Below are positions 9,432-60,394 of a stretch of 64,000 nucleotides of DNA, piece by piece (the first letter of the stretch is position 1; every line of letters begins with the position of its first letter). The stretch comes from Antedon mediterranea (lineage: Eukaryota > Animalia > Echinodermata), in contig NC_092678.1 in NCBI RefSeq assembly GCF_964355755.1, forward strand, positions 5,348,422-5,412,421, written 5' to 3'. A program made the translations under genes and the position numbers. The notes beneath the pieces were generated by a model. It did no database searches, had not been told where the DNA came from, and worked only from the letters and a program-made list of their open reading frames with translations.

Positions 9432-12400
9432 ATGTCGGCTTCCGTAAGTATACAGTTTTGTATTTACCATTCGGGCCTACTAATGCATTAGTTGGTGTAT
9501 AGATCAATCTACACTAACATGATTTGCACATAAAGTTATCACTTTGCTAATAATGATTATATTAATACTATATATTAATCTGGGTGGGGCACGTACGTTC
9601 GATGCGCTGTATGATGAGGGTAAAAGAACGGTTTCTTTGGTCTATGGTTTATGGTGTTCTAAAAAAAATTTACTCCTATAATTGAATTCATCCTGATGAT
9701 GGTACAGCATTAATCATGTTTTTTTTTCTTCCTCTTATTTACACATATAAAATATAAGATTGTAAATAAAGCATATCAAGGAAAGGGCTGAAAAGTTCAA
9801 CCCCTTAACATTAAAAAATAGTTAATAAATAATAATTTAAGGGCTATTTTTCTAACAATTACTATACAGTACATAAAACATTTTTTAAACAAACTTTCTC
9901 TTCGAATATATAATTCTCTTGTAGAAATAAATAAATATATTAAGAAACAAATGTGTTTTTTTGTTAAGAAACCTTAAATCATCTGTGATATAATTTAATA
10001 GCTTTGTTCCAGAATACCTGATATAATGCTGTCCTATATTATTTCTATATTTTGGTATATATACACATTTTCTCTTTGAAAGATCATTAAAAAACAACTG
10101 CAATCCATGTTTTTCAAAACAAAATACGACTTTAAATCGATAAAATAAAGAGCAATATCGAAAAACTAATTAATTTAGTTGTTAATTTGTGTTTGGTATT
10201 TCTAGATAGGAAGATCACTAATTTATTGTTTTTATTATTCAACATCCTAATGATAAGAAATAAATACAAACGACGCTAGTGTACCGTAATTACCAAGGTA
10301 TATTTCTTTTAATTCACTATTTCAGAAAGACTTTAATGACTTGCTTTATAATGTAAGCCGTAAATACGAAGGAAGCAAATTGAAGGAGCTAAGATTTCTG
10401 CTGAATGACCATTGTGATGGATCGACGTTGGCTGATAAACACGGAGGAGCATTCGATTTGTTTCGTGAACTCGAAACCAAAGGTTATATTTCAAATGATC
10501 CTACAGATGTAGAGATTTTGCTAGACACTGCGGAGGAAACCGAAACGGCTGATGCTTCAAAATTAATCAAAGCTTTTAAAACGAAGTATCCAAACATGGA
10601 GACAGGCTACGAGTATACAAAGAATAATCAAATAACACCATTTCGCAAAAAACTTCTAAAAGTTATAAAGAAAAATACAAATGGGGTACAATCTATGGCT
10701 GTCATTTACAAGCTAGGACATGTTCCGTTTGATAGTAAATGGGATTTCATTTTCAGACTTGAGAAGGATTGTAAACTGATTAACACACCAGACTCACTGA
10801 AAGAATTTGCAAAATGTTTGTCTGAAAATGCGTCAAAAATACTTCTCGGTATGTGACGTGTAAACATTATTTAATGACAAGTTAGAGAATAGTTTCAGTT
10901 TATTTATATTTACCAACATACAGTGTAATCATGATTTTTAACAATACAGTAATAACTTGTGGCAAGTAGAATTGGATACTGAAAAGACCCGGTAACCATT
11001 GTGATTACCCAATACTGAAATTAGAAAAATCATTCATTGTTATTTTGTGCAGATGATTATTGATAGGATTAATTAACCATAATATGGTGGGATTGCATTA
11101 TTATTGGAATCTTTTTCAAAAAACACATTTTATGCAAGTGTATACAATATTTAAACTTATTGTTTCAGGTACATCGCAGCCAGGTACATCGCAGTCAGGT
11201 ACATCGCAGTCAGGTACATCGCAGCCAGGTGCATTGCAGCCAGGTACATCGCAGCCAGGTACATCGCAGCCAGGTACATCGCAGTCAGGTACATCGCAGT
11301 CAGGTACATCGCAGCCAGGTGCATCGCAGTCAGGTACATCGCAGCCAGGTACATCGCAGTCAGGTACATCGCAGTCAGGTACATCGCAGTCAGGTACATC
11401 TACGGAATCTCCAAACACTACTAGAGACGGAGGCGCAAGTCAAGAAGGTAGAAATACACATCAATACACGTACAACTTTAATATTTATTATTTATTGGTA
11501 TAAAAATTCATTTATTAATATACAATTTTTGGCTTCTACAATTGTTTCAGGTACATCTAAGGAATCTCCAAACACTACTAGAGACAGAGGCGCCAGTCAA
11601 GAAGGTAAAAATAAAAAGTGTCAATGTTTACCATATTTTACACAATAATTGCCTTTTAAAATAATTTCTTCAAACTTTCCTATTTCTGTAATTTCTTTTT
11701 TTATTTAAATAAATTAATTTAATTCAGCTTTTTCAATTTCTATAAAATAAGAAGCTTAACTATATCACAAATATCTATATAATGGTTTTTTTCTCAAAAT
11801 CAACCAATCTTGCTAAAACTATTCATAGACACAGTGTAGATGATGATACCTCATAAACACTCACCATTGAAAATTAATTATTTATTCGTCATTTCAGATG
11901 AGACTGATAACCCAGGTGCTGCAACAAGTACTACACCTATGGTAATAAACGATACGGATAGGTATAATAACATAGCATAAAGCTACATAATGTGTATATG
12001 TTAATGTGTACTTCGTTAATCTTTGATTACCTTTTGAGTGCAATGTTTCGTATTTGCTATATGCGATATTTTATGTTTAACTTCAATGTTTTTATATAAT
12101 AAATTGCGATAAAAAAGTATACTAAACAAGTTAATAAGGTAATCCCACACAAAACTATCAGATCTTGTATAATTCCCATGGTGTTCTAATTATGTCTACT
12201 ACACATTAACACTGGCGAAGGCAAAGAAAGACGTCCCTATATATTTTTGTTAACCCCAAGAGTTTGCCCAAAAATTGATCTGCACCGTATTTTTAGTTAT
12301 ACTAACATGTAACTAATTTTATGACAGAATGTTGCCTGCCTGTTGTAGTCTTTTTCCATGGCCATCTGGGGATCAAAAGAAGAGTTTGAAGGTTAAACAT

Positions 12401-15400: not shown

Positions 15401-15979
15401 ATCTATTATTCTGGAATTCTATTCTGAAGTAATACGTTTCCAATTTAAGAATCATTTTTAAATGTATTCACAATTTCAGTTTATATTCCATAAAATAGAT
15501 AACAATATAAATTATTTTATGGATAGATGATCACAAAATTGAAGACCAAAGTTTGAAAAAAATATACTACGCGTTATGAACATTCACAACAACTTCATTT
15601 TGAAATACCTCGGACAAAAATCTTTCTTTTTATTTCAGATCATAAACAGTGGTTTCAACTATGTTGGTGTGGTTCAGGGATCCTGTTGATAATTACATTT
15701 GTCGTAGAATTTGTGATCATTTATCGTACTTCTTCAATAGCGGGACCTATAGTTGTTTTAACCATTTCTATACTACTATTTTTAGTTTTTATTATCTTGT
15801 CGTTCATTCTTGGTGGAGATTATGCAAAATGTATCGGTTTTATTGCAACAGTTGTAACCATAATACCAACTTGCTTTGCGTTATATTTCTTGGCGAATGA
15901 GATAGCACGTAATAATAGTAACGAAGGTATAACAACACATTTACCGTCGATGTCTAATGAAACAACTGTGGTTAAGTAA
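9432..15979 (+). CDS. Gene A: tandem-DED-like / GTSQ-repeat linker / 3-TM protein, ~441 aa
   Basis: Exons 9432-9443 (MSAS), 10326-10848, 11169-11447, 11551-11604, 11898-11961, 12463-12515 and 15639-15979 give 1326 nt, open and phase-consistent. DED-like FNDLLYNVS..LKELRFLL..DLFRELETKGYIS is followed by ITPFRKKL..WDFIFRLEK. The last exon has three hydrophobic helices. Confidence 0.8.
9850..10105 (-). mobile_element. LINE 3'-end fragment in gene A intron 1
   Basis: YIPKYRNNIGQHYIRYSGTKLLNYI resembles the C-terminus of CR1/L2-group ORF2. Confidence 0.5.
11166..11400 (+). repeat. Coding 15-bp minisatellite, (GTSQ[P/S]) x15
   Basis: CAGGTACATCGCAG[C/T] tandem units inside exon 3 of gene A. Confidence 0.95.
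12576..12801 (-). mobile_element. Penelope-like repeat fragment, interrupted by a short Helentron-like element
   Basis: Reverse-complement match to 45235-45375 (GAGATCCAGCCACTGATACCCACAGCATTGTCATT; CTGATGAAGGGC). Confidence 0.5.
12652..12754 (+). mobile_element. Short DINE-1/Helentron-like interspersed element
   Basis: AACAAGGCC..GTCGCGTG..(CCGA)n..AGTCGCGT.CACGCGACT hairpin; five related copies in the window. Confidence 0.7.
12827..15383 (-). mobile_element. Non-autonomous Helitron in the last intron of gene A
   Basis: On the minus strand it reads A|TC...hairpin...CTAG|T. Termini and internal blocks are shared with 34834-36382. Internal direct duplication 13982-14357 vs 14804-15108. Confidence 0.8.
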
Positions 15980-17898: not shown

Positions 17899-20800
17899 AT
17901 GTCGGCTTCCGTAAGTATACAGTTTTGTTATTATTTACTATTTGGGCCTACTAATTATATTTGGTGTATAGATTAATCTACAAAACAAAAATATAAAGGT
18001 AAAGGTAAAGGTAAAGGTATTCATATTTGTCCTCAAGCTTAACTGGAAACTGAGGAAATTCGGATTAGGCCCTCACATAAATTATTCATTTGAAATTTGG
18101 GTGGGGCACGTATCTTGGGCGCGTTGGTTCCATTCTTCATTTTTTTGCTGTCGACCTCTTTCCTGTTATTTAACTTCTCCTGGTGAAAAGATCATAACAA
18201 CATTGCATACTACAGATATGTCGATAATTTCTTCAAAAGAAAATAAGATTTAAATAGACAAAATAAAGAAAAACATAATTAAAAACTATTGAATTGAGTT
18301 GATTTTTGTTTTGATAGCAATGTTTTCTATACTAGGCCAATACCATTGTCAATATTGCGCGGTACTCAGATGGGAAGATCACTAAACTTATTTCCTAATT
18401 AATTATTCATGATAAGAAAATAATTCCTAAAAACGATCTCGGTGTAATTGCTAAAGTATATCTTTAATTCACTATTCCAGAACAACTTTGATGACTTGCT
18501 TTTTGATGTAAGCCGTATATACGAAGGATACAAATTGAACGAGCTAAGACTTCTACTGAATAAGCGCTGTGATGGAGCGACGTTAGCTGAAAAACGCAAC
18601 GGAGCACTGAATTGGTTTCGTGAACTCGAAGCCAAAGGTTATATTTCTAAGGAACCTACAGATGTAGAAATTCTGTTGTCGTTGCTAACGAAACAGAAGT
18701 GACTGACGCCGTATCCTTAATAGACGATTATATAAAAAAACATCCAAACAAGAAGGAAAACGTTACGAAGGGCCTACCAATCACACCATTTCGGAAAAGA
18801 CTTCTAAAAGCTGCAAAAGCAAACCAGAGGGATGTACAACTTATGTCTCCTGCCTACAAGAAGCTCCAAAATATAAAATTTGACAATATTTTTGATTTCA
18901 TTTTTAAACTTGAGCAAGGTTGTGAACTGGAGGAGGAGAACCCAGACACAATAACAAAGTTTGCAAAATGTCTGTCAGAAAATGCTTCAAAAATACTTCT
19001 CGGTAAATATTATTTAATGACAAGTAAGAGAACAATAATACAAAAATAGAGTAATAAAAACTTATGGCATTTAGGTATGGAATTGAAATTGATATAGAGA
19101 GTTGGCATAACCAGAATGAACAACAAGTAGAATTGGATACTGAAAAGAACCGGTAGCTATATTACCCAATACTGAAATTAGAAAAATCATTTCCTTGTTA
19201 TTTTGTGATAATTATAATTCATATGATTAATTCAATAGAATAACCATAATATCGTGGGATTGCATTATTATAGGAATCTTTTTAAAAAACAAGGCCAACA
19301 GCCATTAAGTCGCGTGCTAGAATGCATAGTGATACCGGACCGACAGACAGACCGACCGACCGACCGACATAGTAAACTATAGAGTCGCGTCCACGCGACT
19401 AAAAACATGCATTTGATGCAAGTGTATACAATAGTTAAACTTATTGATTCAGGTACATCGGAGCCAGCTACATCGCAGTCAGGTACATCGCAGTCGGGTA
19501 CATCGCAGCCAGGTAGGCCTACGTCTACGGAATCTCCAAATACTACTAGAGACAGAGGCGTAGAAGGTAAAAATAAAAAGTGTCAAATTACCTTGAATTA
19601 CCTTCAAATGTTTTACACAATAATTGCCTTTTAAAATAATTTCTTCAAACTTTCATATTGCTGTAATTTCTTTATTTACTTAAATAAATTAATTTTATTT
19701 AAAAAAATTAATTCTCTTCTCCGTCTCAGAACGTACGTGGCGGAGAAGAAGGTAACATTCGAATACTACTATAGTTTTCAGTCAATAATCCAACCTGCTC
19801 TTATCGGGTCCTTAATATTTATCAGACAATCTTTCTTTAACAAGTTCAAGCGAATTTATTTATATAAACGCTACCTGAAACAATTACCAACAATAATACA
19901 TGGAATAGTTGACCATTGCTTCAATCTTATCGATAATGTGGAAAACAAGGAGATCATTTGAAAACTATGATCTTGATAATATTAAAAACGTCATTCCTAT
20001 TAGGCCTACTGTAATTTTATTGTGATTTATTTAGGCCCCAATTAGTTCAATTAAATTATTCGAAATAATTAATTCAGCCTCAGAATATCTAGTGATTTCT
20101 TCAGTATTACACAATCGTCTGATTTTTTCAAAATTACTTTCTTTAAGACAGTGTATATAATTACACCCTCACCATTAAAATAAATTTCATTTGTCATTTC
20201 AGATGAGCCTGATAACGCAGCTGTTGCCACAAGTACTACACCTATGGTAATACACGATAGGTATAACTAACATAGCATTATGCTATAGTAAACAATTATT
20301 AGGGTAATCCCACACAACTAAACCGTTATATGTTACTTATGTTGCACTTATTTACAGGAGGTTATACAAATTATTATATTAATTAAATAAATCATTATTT
20401 AGGGGGAGACCTACAATACGCGCTATGGTTTGTAAAACCTAAGTTGTCCGAAAGTGAAATTACTACATAGTATTTTCATATCCAGTTGAGCCATATAATA
20501 ATTTTACCATTTCCCACCCTCTAATTTTCAAAATGGATCTATACATCGTAACCAAGTGTTATACTATAGGAACTACTTTATAACATTTGCGCAATTGAAT
20601 CAACATAGAATTTCGCCTTCCTGATGTACGGTCCATAGTCATTTGGTGGATCCAAAGAGTAATTGAGGTTAGCATTGAGCTTAAACAATTGTTGCCTGAT
20701 TACATGGTTAATGACAATGGTTTATATTGTTTATTTCGATTAGGAACACTGAAACAAGCAGACTGAAGAGGATACAGAATTTTACAAAAAGTAATTATCA

Positions 20801-21292
20801 ACTGACAATATTTATATTCGATCTTTAGACTGAATAACAATCAAAAATGACATTGCGTTATGAGCATGACTAATATAAACTTATATATATATATATATAT
20901 TCATCATCATAAAATATATTTTTATATAAATAAATTTATTTATTTTTATTTCAGAAAATAAAAAGCTGTGTGTGTTTATTATTATATGGACACTATTGCT
21001 CCTATGTATTGGCTCGGAATTCGTAATCATTTTTTGTACTTCTTCAATAACGGGATTTTTAGTTGTTTTTATAATTTCTATAATATTACTTGCAATCTCT
21101 ATTTTCTTGTCAATCTGTTTTGGAGAAAAGTTTGAAAAATGTATTACTGCAATTGCAATAATCGGGACTTCAATTCCATTTTTTGTCATACTTTATTTCT
21201 GGGCGATTGAAAAGATAGGAGATAACAGTAATGAAGATATTATAACAACACAGTTACCGTCGATGTCTAATGAAACAACTGCTTTTATTTGA
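17899..21292 (+). pseudogene. Gene B: tandem-DED-like / 3-TM paralog with a 1-nt frameshift in DED1
   Basis: Exons 17899-17910, 18481-19002, 19453-19566, 20203-20260, 20744-20790 and 20955-21292 total 1091 nt. The frame changes at about 18679 (DVEILL | VANETEVTDA). Everything else is intact, so a sequencing error is possible. Confidence 0.7.
19287..19404 (+). mobile_element. Short DINE-1/Helentron-like element
   Basis: Same structure as 12652-12754. It is absent from the paralogous intron position in gene A (~11120), so an empty site is visible. Confidence 0.75.
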
Positions 21293-22876: not shown

Positions 22877-23375
22877 AAAAAGAACGTTTGATTTGATTAA
22901 CTAGGCTATTATATAGTTTCAAGATACAGAATAATACAGGACAGGGCCCTGAAGAATTGGAATTATTACAATGAAATTAGCGCCTAAACATATAAAAGAT
23001 TGACGCTACCAACACCCAGCAACAAAACCTATTATAATATCAATAACCTTATGGCCGGTTCAGTGCAACAGTAATCGATGACGCCCACCACTCAACCATA
23101 GACAAATAATATCTTCATTTTAATCATTCAAGGACTGAAATATAACTAATAATAACTAACTAATTAATAGAGAAGATGAGACTAAATTACAAATGTTGCA
23201 ATTAATTTGATATAGGCTTCTAATTCCAATGTTTCCACCATTGGATTACTCAATGTCGTAATACAAACATGCTCATTCATCCATACAATCGTTTTGTATC
23301 GAATACATTAGGCCTTATACATATCATTATCCGATCGACATAAATTGTAAATCAGGCTGCGCATTGACCTTCAAA

Positions 23376-26300
23376 ATGTCGGCAAAACAGGGGAGTAAAT
23401 TATCTACCGTAAGTATACGATTTCGAAGGTTTTTACTTAGTAGTATCTGGTACTAATAACTATGGTGTAAAGTCTATAAACTATCCATTGTAATCTGTTT
23501 GAAGAGATAATTTCTTTGACGGCGGTGAATGCAAATGAATTTGAATTAGTTGCTTCTAGTGAGGGGTAATTACAAAACAAAGATTTGCCATTTGATAGGA
23601 CTACCGTGCCTCTGGGCGACAGTCATATCCGACAGTATTATACTGCAAGTACAGGCCTACTGTATATTTACATAGATGATAATTGCACGCTGATTATTCA
23701 TTCATTACTGATACATCAGGATATTTTTTTCAATTTCATATTTTGTTTACCGTTACAGACAACAGCAAGTCCCGATACATTCAGAAAATTACTTGAAGAC
23801 ATAAGTAATGCATATAGTGGTAAAAAAAGATATTTTTGGTTAAGACTTTTATTAAATGACCACTGTTCAGGAGGTATGTTAAGTAAGCCTGTAGATGGCA
23901 TGACAGGGCTCGATCTGTTTAATGACCTCAAAGATCAGCATTACATTTTTCCTGATCCTACAGATGTCGAGATTCTGTTAGATATTGGTACGGTAACAAA
24001 GCAGGCCTCGGTTGTTGAATTAATAAAAGATTTCAAAGAGAAGTATCCAAATACCGATGCCAACTACAAGTCCAAATGCAAAAAAATATCAACATTTCGC
24101 AAAAACCTTTTCAATGCTGTAAAGTCAAATGGTAATCCTGTAAAAAAAATGCATGCTAGCTACAACGACGAATTAAAAGGAGAAGTGTTTGATGATATTT
24201 GGGATTTTGTGTTCAAGCTGGAAAAGGAAGATTGCTTGACCGAGATTTCTAAGGAAAGATTTGCAAACCTACTCGACGGGAGGGCAAAGAAGATACTTCT
24301 AGATGCAGCGAATGGAAATGCACAAGGTGAATAAGCAGTAATAATCATTCCTTCTATTTGAAATCGTTTGAATTATTACAATAACAATAGGTATAAAAAT
24401 GACCAATACAAACTGTTAAAATAGCAATGCAAGAAAGAGTAGTAAACATGATGCTTTGCATAGGCCTATTAGAAAATGAACATAATTGTCAAATAGACCG
24501 TTTTCAATTTAGATTTAAAAATTGTTTACCTAATTCTCTGTCCTATTAAATATCACATTCATAATATTCGTAATAAAATGTCTTTTTTTTCTGAATATGG
24601 TTCAGACTTTAAAACCTGAAGATGTAATAGAAAATAAGAAACATTCTTGACTTTTTTGTTCTTCTGGTATTATAGTTGAAGAAGAAGCTTCTGAGGTATA
24701 CACACCCTACACACCCGAGTTGGCCAGAGGACAAGGTATTATTATTTATTATCAAAATAATTTCAACCAATTTTAACAATATATCATGACGATGAAGATA
24801 TCAACTTCCATTACTTACAGTTGATTTTCATTTTGTTTTGGAAAACTGTAACTCTAACCATAATGTTCAAAGAAGAGAATTCTCATCCCAAATTAATTAA
24901 TTTATATTCACAATTTACACAGTAAGCAAAATAATTCCCTTTTTTACTTGTATCATACAGTAGTCTACTTTTAATAAATCATAAATAATTGTGGAGTTGT
25001 TGGATCGAAGTAGCGATGACCTTACAACATACGTTTTGTTTTTGTAGTATCCATTAGCCTGATTTCACAAAATCTTAAAGCTCAGGTACAGGCATGAATT
25101 TTAAATATAATATCTGGTTAATTGTACATAAATCAAATATGTGTAACAGAAATCAAGATGAAAAACCATGAATTTCCCCTAATATGGTCAAATACAAAAA
25201 CCAGGAAGACTTTTTTTCAGTAGTTAGGTAGTTAACATAATGTAATAACATGTCTGGTGACTCCCTAGAAGGTGAAAAAAGATGGTGGATATACGGTGGA
25301 TAATTTTTGCTATAGCATGAAAATAAAATTCTGAAGTTGAATAAAAATACCAGAAATGTAAAATTCAAGTTATATTGCCTATATTTAGTCATCTGATAAT
25401 ATTTTTTACCACACCGTTTATTTTTCATAGCTTTTTAAAATGCCTCTCTATTTTCAAAATTTGTGTACAAAAGAATAGATTTTACTGTGTAATTTGAACT
25501 ATCCCCACACTGATATGAAAGTGCTAATTTTCAAAAAACAAATAAAATTCCAAAAATTATGAAACATAGGGGAAACTATAGATCGATAATTATTGGAATG
25601 TATGATCAATAGAAATGTTTTGCCCGCACCTGGCCTTTAACGAGACTGCCAATAAAGTGTAGCTAATATTCCGATTCTCGTGTACCATGTTTGAAAGAAA
25701 GAATGTACAGAATAAATTTTAGGTTGACTTTTTCAGGTGAATATCATCACACAGGAGAAGAAGAAAATAAACGGATGATTGAAGAACCTTCCACATCCCA
25801 GACTGATCCGATAGAAGAAGGTCATATTAAATATCACATTCATAATTAATCGTAATAAAATGCCTTGTTTTTCCGTATTATGAGAAAATTGTTCAGACTT
25901 CAAAACCTTATGATGTGGCAGAAAACAAGAAACATTCTTGCTTTTCTGTCACTGAATAACAATATTTAATATATGTTTTATAGATATAACATATCTAATC
26001 TTAATTTTCAAAGATGAATCTTCTCGTTTAGTTGAACAAGAAGGTTCTGTGGAATCCACACCCGAGTTGGCCAGAGGACAAGGTAATGTTATTTATTATC
26101 AAAATAATTTCCACCAATTTTGAAAATTTATCATGACGATGAAGATATAAATTTCCATGATTTAAATTTGATAGGATAACTATAACCCTTCATAATGTTC
26201 AAAGAAGAAAACTCTCATCCCATATTATAAATAACTTATTCTAGTGACGAGTGCATATCATGTATTGTTTTTCTTGTTTACTTCAGTCATCATCAAAGTT

Positions 26301-28399
26301 ATTGTTTGTTTTATCTGGAGATTCAGACATAAAGCCATTATGACTTTTTTAAATCTCCACACACAACCAAATGTAGAATTTTTCAATATTTATCAGTAAA
26401 AATGTACTTATACTATGTTGTGTGAAATAAAACTGAAAACTGAAGTCTAAACAACTCCAAATAAAGTGTAGCTAATTCCGGTTCTCGTGTGCCATGTTTG
26501 CAAGAAAGAATGTACAGAATAAAGATAACTTTTTATGTGAATATTTTGACACAGAAGACGAAGAAAAAGAAGAAGAAGAAGAAGAAGAAGAAGAAGAAGA
26601 AGAAGAAATTGTACAGATGATTGAAGAACCTTCCACATCCGAGACTGATTCCACGGAAGAAGGTACATATCAGTCCTGCTACTAAAATTAACATGTACAG
26701 TGAAATGAGAAAAAAATTGTTACATATTACAGTTGATGGAAAATACCAATATTGCATTCACTAGCCAAAAGTAACAAAATGAGATAGTGTGATGATAATA
26801 CAACTGACAAAATGGACTTCTGTAATGTTCAATTTTTTATTAACTAAAATGAAATAACAATTGTTATTCATTAAATCAATTTAGGTTAATATTCAAATCT
26901 ACAAAATATAAAAACAGTAATTCGAAATGATAAATTGAGCAGGACAGGCAGCAACTATACCATGCATACCGTATGGCCTACTGGCACAATAGTAAAATTT
27001 ATAAATAATAGAAAATTAAAACAAAATTGTCTTTGTTACCGTAATACAAAATTGACAGTATTGTTTTTAAAATAAAATATGATAATTGCCCTACTGAATG
27101 TAATACCTTGAAAAATAGTAGGCATATGTTTTTGAAAATATGAGTTTCAAAAACCAATAACAATTGTTTGATCTCGGAAAACAAACACCGTAGTGAAAAT
27201 GAAAACATTTCTTTTTTCTTTTCAGTTGTGCATGATGGAGACACATGGTAAATGACCTCTAGGTATAATAACATAATATTAGCTAATTATTCCGGTAAAC
27301 AATTATTGTATCACACGAATAGTAAACATTTAACTGTTTAACTATTACGTAAGATCTCCCTTCACAAAGCGAAACCCAACGAGGTTGCCTGAAATTTATG
27401 GAACAAAATAATCCAAAACAATGGCGAAGTTTACAGAACAACTATCCAGAGGTATCACCACTCACTAACTCCTTAAAAACGGATCTGCGTTCTTAAAACT
27501 GGATCTGCGTTCCCTTTTTAAGTTTGACCAAAAAGAGTGACTTCACATTTGCGGAATTCAATAGTTTTTTGAAAATATACTAAGAGGATTTGAAAATAGA
27601 ATACTGAAGGTTTAGAATAGTCCAACATAATTATTATTTGGCTATTATGGTTATGTGTTTTATTATATTGTTTTAATTAGCTTAATACTGAAGAGGATTC
27701 AGAATTTTATCGAAGGTAATTATTAATTTAAGACAAAATCTTAACGTAAATATAATGTAAATTGATATATACACCTACATAACAATGTAGATAAAAATGA
27801 CCGAAGTTAAACGTTGAATTACACACAACAGACTGTTTCATGAAGGAGATAAAAATATATTTTCAATCATCAGGTTTTATGCTCCGAGTCTAAAATTGTT
27901 GGTAAGAACTATTAGGCCTATAATCATTTACATAAAATAAATTAGCAGCTCCATCACTCCGTAATTATACTCCACACAATCATGAATGGCAGTTGTAAAC
28001 TATAAATATTTACATAAGCCTCTTCCTACTGAATCTTTTTCCAGTAAGACTTAATTTATTAATAATAATTAACTAAAGCTAGCATTTTTTATTCCCAATA
28101 CTTTGAAAGTGTTTTCTATTTATTTATTTATTTCAGAAAGAGAAAATCGATTTCAACAATGTTGGTGCGTTTGTGGGATTCTATTGATACCGTGTTTTAT
28201 ATTGGAAATAATATTTTATGTTACTTCAATTAAAGCGGGATATATAACTTTTCTTATAATTTTCATATTACTAGTTGTCATTTTTGCTGTATTGTCATAC
28301 AAATTTGGTAAAAAATATAAAGTATTTATCGAATGCATTGCTGCAATCGTTACTATAATTTCAGTGCTTGGCGTTATTGACCTAGTTCTTAGTAAATAA
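23376..28399 (+). CDS. Gene C: tandem-DED-like / acidic linker / 3-TM protein, ~407 aa
   Basis: Exons 23376-23408 (MSAKQGSKLST), 23759-24326, 24676-24735, 25737-25820, 26032-26082, 26555-26662, 27226-27247, 27681-27715 and 28137-28399 give 1224 nt open. Which linker exons are included is less certain. Confidence 0.72.
25079..25636. mobile_element. Probable non-autonomous DNA transposon with TTAA target duplication (Kolobok-like)
   Basis: TTAA flanks at 25075-25078 and 25637-25640. Imperfect TIRs AGCTCAGGTACAGGCA / TGCCCGCACCTGGCCT (12/16 match). Confidence 0.5.
26561..26607 (+). repeat. (GAA)n coding microsatellite, poly-Glu
   Basis: GAA run within the gene C linker exon 26555-26662. Confidence 0.85.
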
Positions 28400-29759: not shown

Positions 29760-32700
29760 ATGTCGGCAAAACAGGGGAGTAAATTATCTACCGTAAGTAT
29801 ACGATTTCGAAAGTTTTTACTTCGTAGTATCTGGTACTAATAACTATGGTGTACAGTCTATAAACTATCCATTGTAATCTGTTTGAAGAGATAATTTCTT
29901 TGACGGCGGTGAAGCCATGGAAATGCAAATGAATTTGTTGCATCTAGTGTGGGGGGGGGGGGCAATTATAAAACAAAGATGTGCCATTTGATGTCGTAGG
30001 ACTACCGTGACTCTTGGCGACAGTCCTATCCGACAGTATTATTAATTATCATTATTATTAATGCAAGTACAGGCCTACTGCATATTTACATGGCAGATAA
30101 TTGCACGCTGATTATTCATTCATTACTGATACATCAGGATATCTGTTCAATTGACATATTTTGTTTACCGTTACAGAAAACAGCAAGTCACGAAGAATTC
30201 AGAAAATTACTTGAAGACATAAGTAATGCATATAGTGGTAAACAAAAATTTTTAAGACTTCTATTAAATGACCACTGTTCAGGATATCTGTTAAGTAAGC
30301 CTGTAAATGAAATGACAGGTCTCGATCTCTTTAATGACCTCAAAGATCAGCATTACATTTTTCGTGATCATACAGATGTCGAGATTCTGTTAGATATTGG
30401 TACGGTAACAGATCAGGCTTCGGTTGTACAATTAGTAAAAAATTTCAAAGAGAAGTATCCAAACACCGATGCCAACTACAAGTCCAAATACAAGGACAAA
30501 CAAATATCAACATTTCGCAAAAACCTTTTTGAGGCTGTAAAGACAAATAGTAAGCCCGTAAAACAAATGCATGCAAGCTACGACGATGAACTAAAAGGCG
30601 AAATATTTGATGATATTTGGGATTTTGTGTTCAAGCTGGAAAGGGAAGATTGCTTGACCGAGGCTTCTAAGCAAAGATTTGCAAACCTCCTCGACGGGAA
30701 GGCAAAGAAGATACTTCTAGGTATGTACTGCATGTTTTTTAATCATACTAGGCCTACACTGCATTTATTAGTAAAAAAAGTAACAGAGTTATACATACGC
30801 CAGCAATAATTTTACAAATGCAACAAGCCTACTCGCCTAACAAACAAAACGAGTAAACAATGATAATTTAGTAATAATAAGAGTAATATTATGTATTCTA
30901 ATTAATGTGACCACTGTATGTGGGCGTTATAATAACGATATGCGCTATATAAGAACAGACTATTATTATTATTATTATTTCGATCTCTTAATCACACCGT
31001 ATACAACATGTTCAATCCATATTTATTTATTTGATTAACCACAAAAATTCAGGTCTTCTTATCAATCTTCCTCCGCTTTATAATCGGATTTTTTTTCAAA
31101 ATGGTTTTTTCTCTTAAAGCATAGTTAACTCTCTTTGTAATTGTAATTTGTTGTGATTTTTCTCTCTTAAAATGAATCGTCCTAACACTTGCAACACTGA
31201 TATTTTTTCTCTTGCCCGTTGTCGAATTAGCGTAACTAACAATGGTTTTATTCAAAGATTATCCAAGCTTTACAACTCAATTTATTTATTTATATATTTA
31301 TTTATATAAGCAGGGAAGAGTTTAACTCTTCCCTGATATAAGACTATCTATATTTTGTTAAAAGTTTGTCAATTTTTAGATATAAAGTTTTTAAAGCTTT
31401 TTAATTTTGCCAAGTTTTGTATAATGTTTCATATTGTATTTTCTGTGTTTTTAGGTATATATTTATATCCAAATATTTTAAGTCTTCCTATAATTTGCGA
31501 TTTTTCGCTGTTAGATGTAGTTGAAATAAAATAAAATAGATAAAACTAAAATAATATCATTATCATTATAATTAAATGTTAACAGGTGAGTCGTCGCTAC
31601 CAATTACATCTACAGAACCTGTATCCATGCCTGAAAACGAACGCAGTGGACAAGAAGGTAATACTTTTTGTAAAACAAATCCAACATCAAAATATACAGG
31701 CCTATTTCTTATTAGTCTGCATAACGCTATCATGTAAATTTTCATTTTGAGCCTCGAATATGGAATAAATCTTATTATTATTATTATCTATTATAGGCTT
31801 CAGTGTTGTTGATAATGGGGAACCGTCAACATTAAATGGAAAGGTAAAAACAAACCAAAGACTAACTGATAAGGCATTACACACAATAGCACATAGTTTT
31901 AATAAGGTACTATACTACGGAAAGAATATTATATAGCTATTAAGACATCATAGTAGAGACGATTAAACACACTTTTTATTTTGTAATTTAGCTTTCTGCT
32001 TTTCATCATCCTCACGATCTTGAAAATTAATAACCCAATATTTCTTCTTACCAAAAAAAGATTTCGTTATTTAATAAATTGTTTTTTCCTCAAGCAATAT
32101 TTCGAAACATAATATAATTGATTAATTATTTTTAAGGAAAGAAAAGAAAAAACACTAGATACACAAAGCATGGAAGGAAACGATGAAGTTATCAATAAAG
32201 CGGAGATCATCAAAAAACAAATAGAAGAGAACATTGATTGTGTTAATATAGGTAAACAGAAATTTCAAAACCGTGTAACAACATGTGAAACAGAAATAGA
32301 GAAACACAAGCAATCTCAAATTGACAGCATTAGTAAAATTCTTTCTGAAGATATACATGTCCTTGACAAAATACGCAAAGAAAAAAATGCAACATTTGCG
32401 AAGCAAGAAAGACATCTTCAATCACAGCAGACTGCTTTGAAGGATGTGATCAGTGACAGTATCAAAAACCCAAAGAAGACGGGGAATATTAAGTTGCAAA
32501 AAGTGGAGGAAGAAATCAAACGATATTCAGCAGAGACCTTTTTATTTGATAAAGAACACCATAAGCCAACAATCATCGAAGTTGTAATACCATATCCAAT
32601 TTTAAGATTAAAAATTGTTGACTGGGACTTTATTATTGATAATAAGGATAGTTCATTTTCAGTAACAAAGGGACAACCATTTACAGTGAATGTAGCAAGA

Positions 32701-37499: not shown

Positions 37500-38019
<520 letters not shown>

Positions 38020-44400: not shown

Positions 44401-44552
44401 TATTTGACAAAGATGGTGGTTTCTTAAGACGAATTGATGAAACTAAGGATGCTATTGATCTTCCAAGTTCAATCACTGTAATCTCAAAAAGACCAAGAAG
44501 ATTAGCAGTTGTAAATTCAGGAGGGAAAAATGTGAAAGTATACAATTACTAA
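41491..44552 (+). CDS. Gene E: coiled-coil/filamin/NHL paralog with a divergent death-fold-derived N-terminus; 5' end unresolved, possibly a pseudogene
   Basis: The terminal exon 42987-44552 is open (522 codons) and homologous to gene D. Upstream phase-consistent exons are 41880-41951, 42171-42308, 42421-42546 and 42667-42755. A degenerate DED2-like exon ends at 41731, with an apparent frameshift at the T7 run 41527-41533. Further candidate exons lie at 38520-38545 and 41109-41367. Confidence 0.6.
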
Positions 44553-49587: not shown

Positions 49588-51539
49588 ATGTCGGCACAAC
49601 AAGGGAGTAAATCCTCTACAGTAAGTATTTATCAATAATAATAGTTATTGCATATTGGTGTAAAAATCAACCTTGCTACCACTACTAAGTATCAATTGTT
49701 AAGCCTGGGTGGGGAACATACATACATGTTCTTGTATTTAAGGGTTAGGTCGTGAAGGCCGAGGAATATTATATCTAATTTGTTTCTAGTCATACGGGCA
49801 CAGCTTGTCACGGTCATACAAACACAAACAAAAGGTACAGATGATAGGACGGGAAGATGAGGATAGGCCCTTACCGTATAATAATGATATAGTAGCACTT
49901 TTATAACTAAATGATTTGCTTTAATGTTTTAGGAACATGCAAGTGACCAAACATTCTCAGAATTACTTAAAAAAATAAGTGATTTATATAAAAGTAGGAA
50001 GTATCGTTGGCTGAGACTTCTGCTAAATGACCACTGTTCTGGAGATTTGTTAAGTGAAAACGACATTACGGGGCACTTTCTGTTTAATCAACTCCAAACG
50101 CGAGGTTATATTTCAAACAACCCTACAGATGTCGATTTTCTAATAGACATTGCTACAATAACAGATCATGACGAGGCGTTACGTTTGACAACAGAGTTCA
50201 ACAATCAATATAACGAGGAAATCCACGATTCCAAATACAAACGTAAGCCAATATCAGAATTTCGCAAAAAACTTTTCAAAGCTTTAATTGCAAACATAAA
50301 TCCTGTGGCACCTATGGTTCTAAACTACAAAAAATTAAACGAAGAGGTGTTTGATAATACCTGGGATTTTGTGTTCAAGTTGGAGAGGGAACTATTGTTG
50401 ACGGAGGATAAAACGAAAATGAAAAGGTTTGCAAACTGCCTCGATCCGGTCGCAAGTGCTATTCTTCTAGGTATGTACATTCCTTAATCGATAGTATAAG
50501 CCTACACTGGTTTTATTTTAGGTGAGATAGGACCAGTAAGTCCCCTATTATATCCAGATCTAATCCTGTTATTTGTATCGAGTCGACGTTATCCAACTTT
50601 CATTTATTATTTCAGGTGAAGATGACAACCCGGATGCTGGAACACCCATGGTAATGCCCCTTAGGTATAATTTCAAATTAGCTAATAGTATAGTACAATG
50701 ACTGTAGTAAATCATATGATGCAGATTATGAAGAAGAATGTTCCCGCATTTTTAATGAGGATATCTTACAAACATCAACAGAAAGTTGAAACAACTGAAG
50801 TTGACAAACATTTTCATTTCCTTCCATCTAGAACTTTCCCAACCATGAAACGCGTTTTATATGCTTCTCTAAGACTATACTAACTGTATCACATTATCAC
50901 ACGTATTCAACGCAAAATGTCCTATACCTGATGTAGTCTATAGTTCTAAAAATAACACGAAGGAATCCCAAAGGTATTAAAGTTAAACATTAACCTAAAG
51001 GTATTGTTTTATTATATGTTTTGTATTCACAAATTCTGTTGATTTTTGTTCAATTAGGACCAATGAGCTAAGCCGAATGGAGAGGATTCAGAAATTCTTA
51101 AAAGGTAATTATAAAGACAATACATAAAAATAAAATACAAATGTAGGCTACACATCATCATCACTATTCTGTTCTGACAATCTATAAATAGATGTTATTT
51201 GTAAGTACTAAATAAAGAATTACTAAAAATAACAAGCACTTTAGATTTCAAATATTGTGTTTTCCCTTTATTTCAGCAAGAAGAAAGAAATGTTGGTATG
51301 TTTGTGGAGTTCTACTGCTTCTGTCCTTTATCCTTGAGTTTGTATTTATCTATGATTCTGTCCTAGCGGGATCTATGGCTATTTTCATAATTAGTATACT
51401 AGTGTTCATAGTTTTTATTGGCTTATCATTCGATCTTGATGGAAAATATGCAAAGGTTATTAACATTATTGCAACAATCGTGACTATTATTCCAACATAT
51501 TTTACGGTATATTTTTTGGCGACTGAATTAAATACTTAA
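49588..51539 (+). CDS. Gene F: minimal tandem-DED-like / 3-TM protein, ~309 aa
   Basis: Exons 49588-49620 (MSAQQGSKSST), 49933-50470, 50616-50664, 51058-51104 and 51277-51539 give 930 nt open. Confidence 0.82.
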
Positions 51540-52631: not shown

Positions 52632-55600
52632 ATGTCGGAAATAAATATATCCTCTACCGTAAGTATACAGTTGTTTACATGTTCATAAACTTTTACGTCA
52701 TGTTTATAAACGTCAGTAGGCTGAATACATTAATCTACAACAAGGTTTGCTACCAACATTGCCCATTGTTATCTGGGTGTAGCACGCACTGAAGCGTTGT
52801 GTGTAAAGTGGTCGAACAATTTCTTTGGGCTATGATTAGGTTTGGGGCGAAAAAATAAATTTATTATAAATTGTTCCTCATAAGGGACATTCATTATGAT
52901 TTTATGAATAGATAAAAAAAACGTAACCAATGAATAAAAATAAACATGTTTATGTATTAGGTTTATTATTTGATCTGTTTTAAAAAATGTATATTTTTTC
53001 TTTTCCAGGAAGAACAATTCGATAAATTACTGAAGAAAGTAAGTAAAAAATATAAAAGAAAGAAAGAATTGGTCGAGCTAAAAATTCTGTTGATGGACCA
53101 CTTTGACGATATGTCGTTACACGAAATAGAAAACATCAAAGCACTTGATTTGTTTGATCGACTCAAATCCAAAGGTTACATTTCTTATGAACCTACAGAT
53201 GTAGAAATTCTGATTGTCATTGCCGAGGAAACAAAAGAGGATGAGGCACTTCAATTACTAAATGAATTTAAAGATACGTATAAAAACAACAATCCCACGT
53301 ACAGATTTTCCAATGACACACCAATAGGAGAAACTCCGAAAATCCTTCTAAAACAAACAAGAGAACAAGGAACATCTGTGATGGGTCTAGAACGTAAACT
53401 TCGAGAATGCACTAATATGCATGAGCAAGTTTATGGTGATACACTCATGTCTGAGGAAGAACGTCAAATGGCGGATAGCACGGTATCAACGGTAAAGTTT
53501 GCAAATTTGCTATTTTTGGGTGATCATTTAGAATAAAATGATCACCTATTGTTATTTTATGAAATCTCTAATATTCTTCTTTCTGTACACTTTTTGTGTA
53601 ACAATTATCTCAAAAAGTTGAATGGCAATGATCACAAAAATTTCACAATGTCTTTCAAATACTTTAACTTAGTCCTAATAAGCTTTTCAGCGGTCAAGGT
53701 CAAGGGTAAAAATATTAGCAAAAAAAAACGCACACGCACGTAGGGTCATGCGCGTTAAAAATGTAAAAAGCTCAAATTTAAGTTTTGATCAATTTAGAGA
53801 ATGAATTAGGTCATTTGCGTGTTTCAAAAAATTACAGCGCAAAAACACGTTTTTGTGCGCGCGATACATACAATATAAAAATAAAAATACGTATTTTTTG
53901 TACAAATCGCCTTCTACTCATCATTCTTAGTACATTCACCAAATTTGAGTCCATTCATAAAATAACGCTATACGAGCAGGTTAAATATGACAAAATGCGC
54001 ACATTAATTGCACAAAAGTGCTGAAAATGGTAAAAAATAAGGCATTTTTAAAATGAAAATAATTCTTCAAAATGCACGGTGATTCCCAATTTTTTTTAAC
54101 TAATTCTGGAAGCCATTGAGTTGTAGATATGAATTCATGTACAAATTTGACGTACAAAATGACGTGACGTCATCAAATGGCCACTTGAATTTAAAAATTA
54201 GGATTTTTAATCTTTTTTTGTAGGTTATCACATTTAATAGAGCGCATCTCAGTTATTTGAGGCCGATTTTGGCTCAAACTTCAGTATGTGCTTGCTAAAT
54301 TAATTATATTTATCATGAGTTGCCACCTTTTTTCATTTTGATGACGTCATCACGACTAAAAACTTGAATAACGTAAGTCGTGTAATTCCACCTGCAGCGT
54401 ATATTTGATTATCTCACAGCTCTTCAGAATTAAAGTTGACCTTGGTGATTATGTGTTATGAAAGCTGAAGAAATTTAGATATGAATTTATATAAAAATTA
54501 AGCATATCAGATGTTGTGACGTTATGATATGGCCAGTTGAAGTTAAAAAGTAGTTTTTTTATTTCTTTAGTCAAAGTTATACAAATTTCAAAGAGCGCGC
54601 ACCGCCCTTCTACGTGCCACATTTTCTTATATATATTTGTTCAACTCATTATTTTTCGATATTGTTATCCACAAGTTTATTTTGATAATGTCATCATACC
54701 AAAAAATTAGAACATGATGTGTGTCCGTAATTTCACCAATGCTACACGTGTATATAGATATACAGTATACACTGAACATATTGTATGGAATATAATAGGC
54801 ACAACTCAGCACTATAAGCGTATAATAGGATGGCATACATCAACATTTTCCGATCGCATTAACATACGTGCATGTTTAAAAATATTATTTTATAAAAATG
54901 ATCACCTATAATTCGTCAAAGTGACGAATTATATTCTAGTTATTCTTTAATCCATTACAACAATTAGGATGGAGCTAGAACATGAGGACGAGTTCGAAGC
55001 ATCAGGAAGAGAAATGATGAACAATCCTAAATCATACGTAGGGCCCACTAATCTCAGAATATAATTTGTTTATGCCTTTTTGCTTTACTTTTCCAGAAAA
55101 ACAAATTTCATAATATGCTTTTAGATCTAAGTATTACATATGGGGGCGAGGACAAATTGCTCCAGCTAAAATACCTGCTGAAAGACCACTGTGACGGAAT
55201 GCCGCCCGACGAAGAAATACTGGGAGCACCAGCTTTGTTTCATCAGCTTGAAAAGAGAGGCTATATTTCTCATAACCCTACAGATGTAAAGATTTTGTTA
55301 GACATTACTAAAGAAACAGAAGATATGGAGGCATTTAATCTAATTCATGCTTTTAAAGAAAAGTATCCAAACAACGATCCCAACTACAAGTATACGAAGA
55401 ACAAACCAATAGAGGAAGCTCGTAAAAAAATTCTAAAACAAGCAAGAAATTATCATCTAGACTTAAATAAGATATATCATACAGATCCAGTGATATCGAT
55501 GGAGGATATGTATTGTTATATTCACTTATCTTCTGAAGACCTAAAACAAAAACAAAGAGGGTAAAGACTGTTTTTAAAGAAACGATAAATAAATGTTCAT

Positions 55601-56789
55601 AATAAATATTAAAACTTAATTTCCAAGACGCTGGCATATTTGATTATTGATTATACTGCTTACTTTAACCTGTAAAGTTTGATTGCTTGATTTTGTGTTT
55701 ATACTGGTTTATTTTCCTTCGATTAGGGCAATGCAGAAGATGTTTCACGAACTAGAAGAAAAGGAGAAAAAGACAGGTAACAATTTACAATGTAAATTTG
55801 TATGAAAATGTAATATAAATACACAGCAACTCCACTGCAATTGTTCACAATAAAAAAATAAAGAACATCAAGGCCATTCAGAAGAGGTATCTATAGTTAT
55901 GCATTCTCACAAACATAAACAACACCTAGTTAATTAGAAAGAAGCTGAACTGATTGCTACTGTTCCTTCTCGAGATGCGCCAGAGAAATCTACAAACACA
56001 ACACTGTTCATCGATTCAAGATATTGGATTTGTTATTAGTGATATTTGGCTATCTTTATTCAACAAGAACCTACAACAGTAAACCATGCCATAGTTCTTG
56101 GCAAGTTTACATTGTGCGGTTCACAACCATTTCCAGACACATGGTCGTTATACACTCAGCTTCCAGACAATGCTATTGTTTTTGGCTGCCCACGCCTCTA
56201 AAAAAAATGCTCTTCTATAGCTAGTTTCAATCCCTCCCATTGTGAACCTTGCTATTCTTTTAGCTTTCACATCAGTCCCATCCAATTTCACTTATATTTC
56301 CAGTTTCCTGGACTTCCTGCATTCTCACTCCTGAGGATGATCAAAGTACATTGATCGAAACGTCAAGAAACTCAACAGTTCTTTTCAGAACTGCATACGT
56401 GATGTACCTCAAACTTTATATCAACAATAAATAAATGTTCTTAAATTTAAATTCTGTCACAATCATTAGACATTATTGACTATAACAATCAGAGATTAAA
56501 ATGTTTACATTTGTTTATTTCAGAAAGAACAAAATGGTCCATACGATGTTGGTATGCTTTGTTAATTGTATTGGCGCTGTGTATTGTGTTGGAATTTTTC
56601 CTTTATTTTTTCAATACAACAGGATATATAGTTGTTCTTTTTATTTTGATATTCCTCGTTATTGTTTTTACTGTGTTGTCATTCATACTTGGTGAAAAGT
56701 ATTTACAAATTGTCAATTTCGTTTCAGATTTCATGACTATAATTTCAATCTTAACATTGTTGGACTTATTTGTAAATAACGATAAATAG
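52632..56789 (+). CDS. Gene G: two duplicated DED1-type exons / 3-TM protein, ~429 aa
   Basis: Exons 52632-52658 (MSEINISST), 53009-53491, 55097-55560, 55727-55776 and 56524-56789 give 1290 nt open. Alternatively these are two genes, the second starting at ATG 54969. Confidence 0.65.
53513..54940. mobile_element. Non-autonomous Helitron/Helentron-like element in gene G intron
   Basis: Subterminal inverted motifs GGTGATCATTT / AAATGATCACC at both ends. Terminal hairpin AATTCGTCA-AAG-TGACGAATT followed by CTAG|T. Confidence 0.6.
55830..56430 (+). mobile_element. Penelope-like retroelement remnant
   Basis: Degraded GIY-YIG-like tail (SIVMHSHKHKQHLVN*KEAELIA), followed by a CTGAGGA-stem-GAAAC motif and AATAAA. 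Confidence 0.5.
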
Positions 56790-58405: not shown

Positions 58406-58406
58406 T

Positions 58407-59442
58407 GTAAGCCAATATCAGAATTTCGCAAAAAACTTTTCAAAGCTTTAATTGCAAATATAAATCCTGTGGCACCTGTGGTGTTTGATAATACCTGGGA
58501 TTTTGTGTTCAAGTTGGAGAGGGAACTATTGTTGACGGTGGATAAAACAAAAATGAAAAGGTTTGCAAACTGCCTCGATCCGGTCGCAAGTGCTATTCTT
58601 CTAGGTATGTACATTCCTTAATCAGCATAGTATAAGCCTACACTGGTTTTATTTTAGGTGAGATAGGACCAGTAAGTCCCCTATTATATCCAGATCTAAT
58701 CATGTTATTTGTATCGAGTCGACGTTATCCAACTTTCATTTATTATTTCAGGTGAAGATGACAACCCGGATGCTGGAACACCCATGGTAATGCCCCTTGG
58801 GTATAATTTTAAATTAGCTAATAGTATAGTAGGCCTAATAATGACGGTAGTAAATCGTAAGTTATCAAGTAGGACGAACTGATGCAGATTATGAAGAAGA
58901 ATGTTCCCGTATATTCATTTCCTTCCATCCAGAACTCTCCCAACAATGAAACGCGTTTTATATGCTTCTCAAAGACTATACTAACTGTATCACATTAGCA
59001 CGCGTAATCAACGCAAAATGTCCTATACCTGATGTAGTCCACTAGTTCTAAAAATAACACGAAGGAATCCCAAAGGTATTAAAGTTAAACATTAACCTAA
59101 AGGTATTGTTTTATTATATGTTTTGTATTCACAAATTCTGTTGATTTTTGTTCGATTAGGACCAATGAGCTAAGCCGAATGGAGAGGATTCAGAAATTCT
59201 TAAAAGGTAATTATAAAGACAATACATAAAAAAAAATACAAATGTAGGCTACACATCATCATCACTATTCTGTTCTGACAATCTATAAATATATGGTATT
59301 TGTAAGTACTAAATAAAGAATTAACAAAAATAACAAGCACTTATACCTTTAGATTTAAAATACTGTGTTTTCCCTTTATTTCAGCAAGAAGAAAGAAATG
59401 TTGGTATGTTTGTGGAGTTCTACTGTCTTTTATCCTGGAGTT
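58407..59442 (+). pseudogene. Truncated duplicate of gene F (DED2, two linker exons, start of the TM exon)
   Basis: Near-identical to ~50243-51340 including introns. It lacks exon 1 and DED1, has a 30-nt deletion in DED2, and breaks off early in the TM exon. Confidence 0.88.
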
Positions 59443-60394
59443 ATCCTATAATTTTTAGGATACGGAAGACCCCTCCATTGTGACACTTCTATTCAGGAGA
59501 CATCTCTATTAAGGGGACCCTTTCAAGCATGGGATGGATTGAGGTGTGTGAGGACGCCGTACAAGCATTGGTCCTGACGCCTTTTCAAACATCTCTTTTG
59601 TTTGTGCTTTTAATATGTTTGGTTCTTTATTAAAAATTTTTTTTCCGGGGAAACCCATATTATTAAGGGGAAGATTTGATAGGTCCCGAATGTTTCCCTT
59701 TTGTATTATCTTAAACAAAATAGGCCTGGGTAAATATTTAGACTTATTATTCCAAACATTATATTGATGTTTGGATAGTTTTATTATCATAAATGCTGTA
59801 CTGTACCAACATTTATAACATATTATATTGCATTTTAAATTTGTTTTACGCTTTTACAATGCAGTACTGTATACATTGTCAAATGTCAATTGTACCTAAA
59901 ATACTACAATGCCTTAAATAAAATAATAAGGTCGGCTGCATAAAATAAAACTTTATAAATTTAAGTAATTTCCCCAGAGACATGTCATATTTGTTACTAT
60001 GGTAACTATTCAAACATAGTCTTATCAATGTGCATTATCAAACAATTAAAGAGGAAATTATGAACCTGTAAATTAGCTACTGCTTGCGTTTACTTTCTGT
60101 AAAGCATACAGATTTTTTGGGCACGAACAGACGGACGTGTATTGGACTAAAGTAGAAAAACAGCGATCAATTTGGAAAAAGTGAATTTGAAGTAAGTAAT
60201 TACTGTATTGTAAGCTTAACTTCTTCAACATTCGCTACCAACAGCAAAATGTATCTAGACTAGACAAAAACACTTTGGGACAACCACAATAGCCTAATCG
60301 CATTACCAGCTGCAAAACAATTGAGCTAAATTGAATTACTAATTTATTATGTAGTCAATATCAATATTATTATTATTCATTCCTCTTCCAGAAA

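Follow-up and report, generated by a model that had tools for sequence, protein, structure and literature searches.

The 64-kb stretch of DNA from the crinoid Antedon mediterranea that was analysed here (contig NC_092678.1; referred to below as the window) carries on its forward strand an array of exons resembling death effector domains (DED). Five of these are followed by a terminal exon that encodes three hydrophobic segments (3-TM exon; TM, transmembrane helix) with a conserved Glu in the first of them. The protein domain encoded by these terminal exons, a family known from this window alone, is the subject of this study. The base composition is that of AT-rich animal DNA, with a G+C content of 0.27–0.37, about 31%. 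The genes are designated A to E in their order along the window, and their terminal exons are:

15639..15979, + strand: gene A terminal exon; three hydrophobic helices, the Glu being residue 23 of the translated exon, stop codon TAA (15977–15979)
20955..21292, + strand: gene B terminal exon; paralogue of A with 50% identity, tail with an N-E-T sequon, stop codon TGA (21290–21292)
28137..28399, + strand: gene C terminal exon; short tail, stop codon TAA (28397–28399)
51277..51539, + strand: gene D terminal exon; residues 223–309 of XP_071960880.1 (P0002), stop codon TAA (51537–51539)
56524..56789, + strand: gene E terminal exon; the most divergent, 37% identity to A, two Asp in TM3, stop codon TAG (56787–56789)
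59387..59449, + strand: degraded remnant of a terminal exon similar to that of gene D; reads RKKCWYVCGVLL--SFILEL before a stop; downstream of a partial DED exon at 58376–58621

A preliminary description of this DNA, made from the sequence alone, had placed the five terminal exons at these positions, and acceptor, phase and stop codon were verified for each of them. All five begin behind a polypyrimidine tract with the acceptor 'tttcag' (15636–15638 in gene A) in phase 1, two bases completing a codon. The translations of exons A to E comprise 112, 111, 86, 86 and 87 residues and share 37–53% identity with exon A in the alignment; that of exon A contains ...HKQWFQLCWCGSGILLIITFVVEFVIIYRTSSIAGPIVVLTISILLFLVFIILSFILGGDYAKCIGFIATVVTIIPTCFALYFLANEIARNNSNEGITTHLPSMSNETTVVK and ends in a tail of 26 residues with an N-N-S and an N-E-T sequon. 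The N-E-T sequons described previously were found in the tails of both A and B, and tails and lengths differ freely among the five exons. When a profile of the five exons was run against all 1481 six-frame open reading frames (ORFs) of the window with at least 25 residues, only these five gave strong matches (E 1e-32 to 3e-40). One additional fragment was detected in the ORF 59306–59455 (E 0.0044), which contains the degraded copy listed above, and all remaining ORFs had E values of 0.024 or higher. Each of the five terminal exons is preceded by a DED-like exon of the same orientation. Their assignment as terminal exons of DED genes holds, as the RefSeq model makes this join in gene D.

Ten alignment columns are invariant (numbering of exon A): C8, L16, E23, G35, I42, I44, L53, S54, T73 and I75. 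All motifs that had been described for the family were recovered, including, exactly as given, the sequence contexts of the Glu (VVEF, GSEF, ILEI, ILEF and VLEF), the Gly at the start of TM2 and the Thr in TM3, the latter two in all five exons. The Cys preceding TM1 is present throughout, and a Trp follows it in four of the five exons (exon B reads CVF). One detail has to be corrected: the motif in the loop between TM2 and TM3 exists, but its actual spacing is LS-x3-(G/D)-x2-(Y/F), one residue longer than proposed.

Gene D provides the reference for the organization of these genes. With its DED exon as query, a single protein was retrieved with 100% identity, an uncharacterised protein of Antedon mediterranea. 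Its cluster consists of two isoforms, X2 (XP_071960881.1, P0001, 204 residues) and X1 (XP_071960880.1, P0002, 309 residues). P0002 maps on the window as five exons with 100% identity, and the last one begins exactly at 51277. The four preceding exons are:

49588..49620, + strand: gene D exon 1, encoding MSAQQGSKSST
49933..50470, + strand: gene D exon 2, the tandem-DED exon, residues 12–191 of P0002
50616..50664, + strand: gene D exon 3, encoding linker sequence; in isoform X2 the exon ends sooner, at a donor after 50650
51058..51104, + strand: gene D exon 4, TNELSRMERIQKFLK; modelled as a single helix continuous with TM1

The two alternative donors of exon 3 are 14 bases apart and choose between the anchored isoform X1 and the truncated isoform X2. 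Use of the earlier donor after 50650 shifts the frame and leads to a stop in exon 4 (...TPMDQ), so that X2 lacks the membrane part and would be a soluble product. One contig from a sequencing run, X1, that is presumed to be RNA spans 51275–51986 and is joined to about position 51096 in exon 4, omitting the annotated last intron. Within the 3-TM exon it differs from the window at six positions, four of them synonymous and two not (L19I and D26A). The same run has zero cover over 49400–50415, and one of its contigs is unspliced across 50622–50953. The spanning contig is a weak hint that the gene D exon is expressed and under purifying selection.

Counted along TM1, which has about 20 residues, the invariant Glu occupies position 15, some five residues before the outer end. 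As described previously, it lies within the membrane segment, where it is the sole charged residue retained inside a hydrophobic segment in all five exons. Its codon is GAA in four exons and GAG in D, which corresponds to one synonymous change. The residue is also retained in the degraded sixth copy (SFILEL), and its codon is identical in the second allele represented by the contig of run X1, which has the two other amino-acid changes given above. A Glu within the membrane costs insertion energy, and a single mutation would turn it into Ala, Gly or Val. Because the five exons, the relic and the second allele have all kept it despite this cost, its codon having undergone one synonymous change, the Glu is probably a real, selected feature of the domain, though one of modest statistical weight. 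Of the 64 alignment columns that make up the three hydrophobic segments, nine show no variation among the five paralogues, and therefore invariance alone is weak evidence for a role of the Glu. No significant conserved helical face was detected in any of the three helices, as 566, 898 and 3073 of 5000 shuffles, respectively, reached the observed moment. The pairwise ratios of non-synonymous to synonymous substitution rates (dN/dS) range from 0.40 to 1.02 for the 3-TM exon and from 0.31 to 0.74 for the DED exon. The highest values of the 3-TM exon belong to the pair C–E and to the pairs with B (0.70–0.90), the gene whose DED exon is frameshifted. These ratios suggest a weak to moderate constraint on the 3-TM exon.

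Three hydrophobic segments, as proposed before, are present in each of the five exons (Kyte-Doolittle averages over 19-residue windows with maxima of 2.9–3.4). Thus the single C-terminal membrane helix that characterizes MAVS-type proteins is not what is found here. AlphaFold2 places helices at residues 2–29, 34–57 and 60–99 of exon A alone, and at residues 208–249, 251–275 and 278–308 of the 309-residue gene D protein. In crude insertion-energy sums, for which the scale values follow Hessa et al. 2005 and are not the output of a tool, TM2 is strongly hydrophobic (−4.2 to −6.3). The N-terminus of the gene D protein (MSAQQGSKSSTEHASDQ...) is hydrophilic, and hence the absence of a signal peptide noted earlier was borne out. 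A cytosolic tandem DED without signal peptide requires a topology with the N-terminus inside and the C-terminus outside. Over the five exons, 21 Lys and Arg residues are located in the N-terminal flank and the TM2–TM3 loop, and 7 in the TM1–TM2 loop and the tails. This distribution agrees with the positive-inside rule and with the earlier proposal of cytosolic DEDs and a C-terminal tail on the other side of the membrane. A protein with three spans, N-terminus in and C-terminus out, is likely.

The N-terminal half of these proteins resembles a tandem DED (tDED). The Pfam family PF01335 (DED) matches four of eight DED-exon ORFs at E ≤ 1 (5.5e-7, 5.2e-4, 0.011 and 0.038). A profile of seven DED exons detected the DEDs of caspase-8 among the PDB sequences (E 2e-4 to 4e-3). 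Designed pentatricopeptide repeat proteins ranked at the top of the same search and were discarded as repeat artefacts, since their scores are sums of weak matches of which not one stretch passes alone. P0002 itself had no better match than E 0.68 in the PDB by sequence. The AlphaFold2 model of P0002, calculated from 13 aligned sequences, each of them a paralogue from the window, has a mean confidence (pLDDT) of 77.6, and blocks of ten residues reach 80–96 over most of residues 21–190. With this model as query for Foldseek, ranks 1–12 in the PDB were all tDED chains of caspase-8 or cFLIP, aligned over 178–191 columns with a probability of 1.00, TM-scores by target of 0.64–0.69 (0.26 for the 544-residue chain of 5jqe) and E values of 5e-3 to 0.13. 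MC159 and other viral FLIPs (vFLIPs) were placed lower than caspase-8 and cFLIP. Among the viral models of BFVD, ranks 1–3 were MC160L, a herpesviral v-FLIP and an unnamed entry (probability 0.99), and E8 was found at rank 6. Two six-helix death-fold domains packed as in a tDED are seen in the predicted model only. Consideration was also given to TRADD-N as the second domain; it was ruled out, as the region is modelled as all-helical and aligns as DED2. We accept the N-terminal half as a tandem DED in the sense of a predicted fold with weak sequence support. It is not followed by a caspase domain in P0002, which goes on with the linker and the three hydrophobic helices, and the Pfam scan of the exon ORFs gave no match to peptidase C14.

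The description of the membrane domain as unrecognised stands, as none of the searches made revealed a family, a fold or a relative. In Pfam-A, the five exons gave 14 matches, all under the cut-offs; the best were Yip1 with 16.7 bits (cut-off 28.6) and 7TMR-DISM_7TM with 15.9 bits (cut-off 29). Pfam Bap31 matched none of the five exons at E ≤ 1. The five-exon profile had no match at E ≤ 0.001 among 1,835,955,588 representative proteins. Word-based searches against longer proteins yielded 240 candidates for exon A, none at E ≤ 0.01, and 7999 scored candidates for the five-exon alignment, none of which was a match. These blanks of the sequence searches are weak, because the carrier P0002 is hidden behind the cluster representative P0001, which lacks the membrane part; the same hiding may apply to other genes and other crinoids. 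Searching the PDB by sequence with the 3-TM part, the best match was a designed membrane protein (E 0.17), and Foldseek with the model of exon A (pLDDT 67) gave a best E value of 1.6 in the PDB. The wide search of VIA-align with the same model reached a best Z of 11.0, for soluble three-helix bundles, which is below this tool's noise level of about 13 for helical bundles. The feature-based search of the Atlas had a best value of 0.80 and no usable match, and its structure rows were generic three-span proteins, all rated 'under the bar'.

Searches with the upstream ORFs (tblastn) located DED-like exons at nine places on the + strand, with matches starting at 10290 (A), 18448 (B), 23780 (C), 30189 (g4), 49954 (D), 53066 (g6), 55079 (E), 58376 (partial) and 60383 (g9). 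A 3-TM exon follows five of these nine exons and the degraded fragment follows one. Besides those of gene D and the partial copy, the exons and linkers are:

10326..10850, + strand: gene A tandem-DED exon; best Pfam DED match, ends ...ILLG, donor G|gtatg, phase 1
11165..11400, + strand: gene A linker; 15-nucleotide tandem repeat, 15.7 copies, coding for (SGTSQ)n; presumably spliced in, judging from the frame and the phase-1 borders
18448..19004, + strand: gene B tandem-DED exon; two frames, shift near 18680
23765..24301, + strand: gene C tandem-DED exon, located by tblastn
30183..30725, + strand: tandem-DED exon g4; 81% identity to C, not followed by a 3-TM exon within the window
53066..53512, + strand: DED exon g6; second half diverged, lacks a 3-TM exon belonging to it
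55079..55528, + strand: gene E DED exon; DED1 recognisable, second half unmatched by the DED2 profile
60383..60934, + strand: tandem-DED exon g9; start Met inside the exon, no 3-TM exon before the end of the window

The (SGTSQ)n repeat of gene A has a counterpart in gene B at 19450–19515 (+) with 4.4 copies. In both genes it forms a Ser/Thr-Gln-rich linker of variable length that connects the DEDs to the membrane part. The linker may resemble SQ/TQ cluster domains, which are kinase targets. The segments 23369–23416 and 29753–29800 (+), which precede the DED exons of C and g4, share 90% identity with the region of the start-codon exon of gene D; hence C and g4 probably have the same short first exon as D. 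Within the long intron of gene A a repeated element is present at 13887–14284 and 14769–15052 (+), with the identical ORF text twice, and this region also contains tandem repeats of 37 and 68 nucleotides.

Two long and closely similar ORFs of 536 and 522 residues lie at 32122–33732 and 42984–44552 (+). Both have coiled-coil, Filamin and NHL-repeat matches (NHL E 4.6e-10 and 4.6e-12) and thus look like the C-terminal half of a TRIM-NHL protein; no ORF with a RING or B-box was seen upstream of either. The first one has an in-frame ATG at 32170. DED material precedes each of them, namely the intact g4 exon (30183–30725) and a weak DED2-like remnant at 41524–41748 (E 0.0035), and the duplicated unit may have been 'DED exon + NHL exon'. 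A direct splice from the g4 DED exon to the NHL exon was rejected because the phases clash (donor in phase 1, acceptor at 32135 in phase 0). Elsewhere in the window, two adjoining ORFs at 5664–6760 (−) belong to a reverse-transcriptase-like retroelement with a visible YADD motif, and a microsatellite of about 600 bases at 37447–38100 is open in all six frames as (IY)n.

The most likely reading, held with moderate confidence, is that these genes encode a lineage-specific family of membrane-tethered, FLIP-like tandem-DED adaptors, which would join or cap DED assemblies at the membrane. The 3-TM domain would cross the membrane three times, with the N-terminus in the cytosol and the C-terminus outside, and would tether the predicted tDED. 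Insertion would be carried by the strongly hydrophobic TM2, TM1 and TM3 being marginal. Polar and tight packing contacts would most likely be provided by the Glu, by the Gly after the very short TM1–TM2 turn and by the conserved Ser and Thr, and these contacts would hold together the bundle itself, several copies or a partner. The invariant juxtamembrane Cys is a candidate palmitoylation site. A disordered low-complexity linker, (SGTSQ)n in A and B, would serve as the tether between membrane and tDED. Since a tDED is present and a caspase domain is not, the action would resemble that of short or viral FLIPs: FADD/caspase-8-type assemblies would be joined or capped by the tDED, confined to the membrane surface, and alternative splicing would release a soluble form. 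A fast-evolving tandem array adjoining NHL-repeat genes is typical of invertebrate immune and cell-death expansions.

Several observations weigh against this assignment. No relative was found outside the window. The matches to PF01335 all remain under the gathering cut-off (for the best, in gene A, 30.2 versus 35.9 bits), no Foldseek match in the PDB or BFVD reached E ≤ 0.001, and with the DED2 profile the second DED is unrecognisable in E and g6. For the membrane helices the confidence of the models is no more than moderate (pLDDT 62–79 in P0002, 67 in exon A), and the alignments used for both AlphaFold2 models contain paralogues from the window only. TM1 (0.0 to −3.0) and TM3 (−0.8 to +4.0, the highest value being that of E) are marginal by the crude insertion-energy sums; therefore fewer spans are possible, and the three-span arrangement is likely but unproven. 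For gene A, the join from DED exon to linker to 3-TM exon is deduced solely from reading frame and splice phase. Gene B has a frameshift in its DED exon, within ...EILL/VVANETE... (18640–18700), where the original frame reaches a stop; this indicates either a pseudogene or an assembly error, and the frame of its 3-TM exon remains open. Furthermore, three DED exons (g4, g6 and g9) have no 3-TM exon in the window, and dN/dS is 0.9–1.0 for the pairs B–C and C–E.

The preliminary description had preferred oligomerisation, ion conduction or partner pairing to a passive anchor, a preference for which no direct support emerged. In the simplest alternative the helices are a passive anchor that only holds the protein in the membrane, while the Glu and the other invariant residues either aid insertion and packing of the marginal TM1–TM2 hairpin or have merely not yet been lost from young paralogues; oligomerisation, partner and conduction would all be absent. 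This explanation is possible, although we do not consider it probable. It would account for the dN/dS of 0.4–1.0, for the variable tails and lengths, for invariance being as common as 9 of 64 membrane columns and for the missing conserved helical face; moreover, a Glu about five residues from the outer end of TM1 could reach the interface. On the other hand, one helix would be enough for anchoring, and a costly Glu has been kept in all five exons, the degraded copy and the second allele, though Ala, Gly or Val would be tolerable. The Glu might instead pair with a basic membrane residue of another protein in the manner of DAP12 or the T-cell receptor, the tDED being the signalling arm of a receptor without a death-fold domain of its own. 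A single conserved acidic membrane residue, with no conserved basic residue in the domain to neutralise it, is what such an adaptor would show, and a fast-evolving, tandemly expanded family is reminiscent of immune receptor-adaptor sets. However, known pairing adaptors have one helix and not three, and the window showed no protein with a basic residue in a membrane segment that could be the partner. We regard partner pairing as rather unlikely.

Far less credit can be given to a pore or channel, in which DED polymerisation would cluster the 3-TM domains and a ring of Glu residues would line a cation-conducting or membrane-breaking opening. Apart from the conservation of the Glu and the fact, established for caspase-8, that tDEDs tend to polymerise, it can only draw on generic three-helix matches that include channel pore domains, and these are rated uninformative (Z 8.4–9.6 at a noise level of about 13). 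No helix has a conserved polar face, TM2 is uniformly aliphatic, the exon evolves fast and neither fold nor sequence links the domain to channel families. The 'DED-polymerised pore' and the 'stress sensor' suggested in the preliminary description are speculation, and a pore or sensor role of the Glu is unsupported. Equally improbable is the idea that the domain is a new membrane-acting effector module: polymerising tandem DEDs would bring the anchors close to each other, and the ring of charged Glu residues thus formed would conduct cations or rupture the membrane. A death-fold filament would in that case need no caspase to act directly on a membrane, with the soluble isoform as the brake. The least credible explanation is decay or mis-annotation, in which the 3-TM exons of most genes would be relics or untranslated frames resembling 3' untranslated regions. 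The frameshift in the DED exon of gene B, the degraded copy at 58376–59449 and a dN/dS near 1 in some pairs would fit such decay. Nevertheless, although the DNA has only about 31% G+C, five frames of 86–112 codons are uninterrupted, and their acceptors and certain residues are conserved; the RefSeq model of gene D contains the exon, and the second allele has four synonymous versus two non-synonymous differences.

If the Antedon proteins are membrane-tethered adaptors, their closest functional analogues would be short cFLIP and the viral FLIPs (MC159/MC160, herpesviral vFLIP and E8), which have the tandem-DED fold predicted for the Antedon proteins and likewise no protease domain behind it. In contrast to the soluble FLIPs, the Antedon proteins add a linker and a three-helix membrane domain, and the identity is only 11–20%. 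MAVS combines a polymerising CARD with a low-complexity linker and a C-terminal anchor that confines the assembly to the membrane surface. It has one CARD and a single tail-anchor helix, whereas the Antedon proteins have two DEDs and three helices with a conserved Glu. BFAR (BAR) consists of a RING, a SAM domain, a DED-like region and C-terminal membrane segments, and resides in the endoplasmic reticulum (ER). As in the Antedon proteins, a DED-like module is tied to an internal membrane by C-terminal hydrophobic segments; however, BFAR has a single DED-like region instead of a tDED, and the Pfam scan of the DED-exon ORFs gave no match to RING or SAM.

The ER proteins BAP31 and BAP29 are similar in outline, as three-span membrane proteins that offer a death-pathway module to the cytosol by a tail engaging caspase-8, and the tail of BAP31 is said to hold a 'variant DED'. 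The order is reversed, however: in BAP31 the membrane part comes first, the N-terminus is luminal and the coiled-coil tail ends with KKXX. Three membrane spans and cleavage by caspase-8 are described for BAP31 in PMC2172754. Comparison of the sequences gives no sign of homology to BAP31. A further invertebrate, lineage-specific and expanded family that ties a DED to the membrane is known from oyster, where, according to Kaur et al. (2021, PMC8195603), an extracellular Cys-rich domain, one membrane helix, a DED and TRADD-N are combined. The oyster proteins are type-I receptor-like, with the DED behind the membrane helix and with TRADD-N, whereas in Antedon the tDED is N-terminal and three helices are C-terminal. 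The Antedon 3-TM domain does not belong to any membrane family that was tested. In the literature searches made, no description was found of a tandem DED fused to a multi-span membrane anchor.

Death-fold domains signal by polymerising, and the site of polymerisation matters, MAVS on mitochondria being the classic case. The orphan three-helix domain with its conserved buried Glu is a small and convenient model for the study of polar residues within transmembrane helices. If these genes encode membrane-bound FLIP-like regulators with a soluble variant, they would be a natural system in which to study how membrane confinement controls the nucleation or capping of DED filaments. They would also be a further example of echinoderms using domain shuffling and tandem duplication to rebuild the wiring of immunity and cell death.

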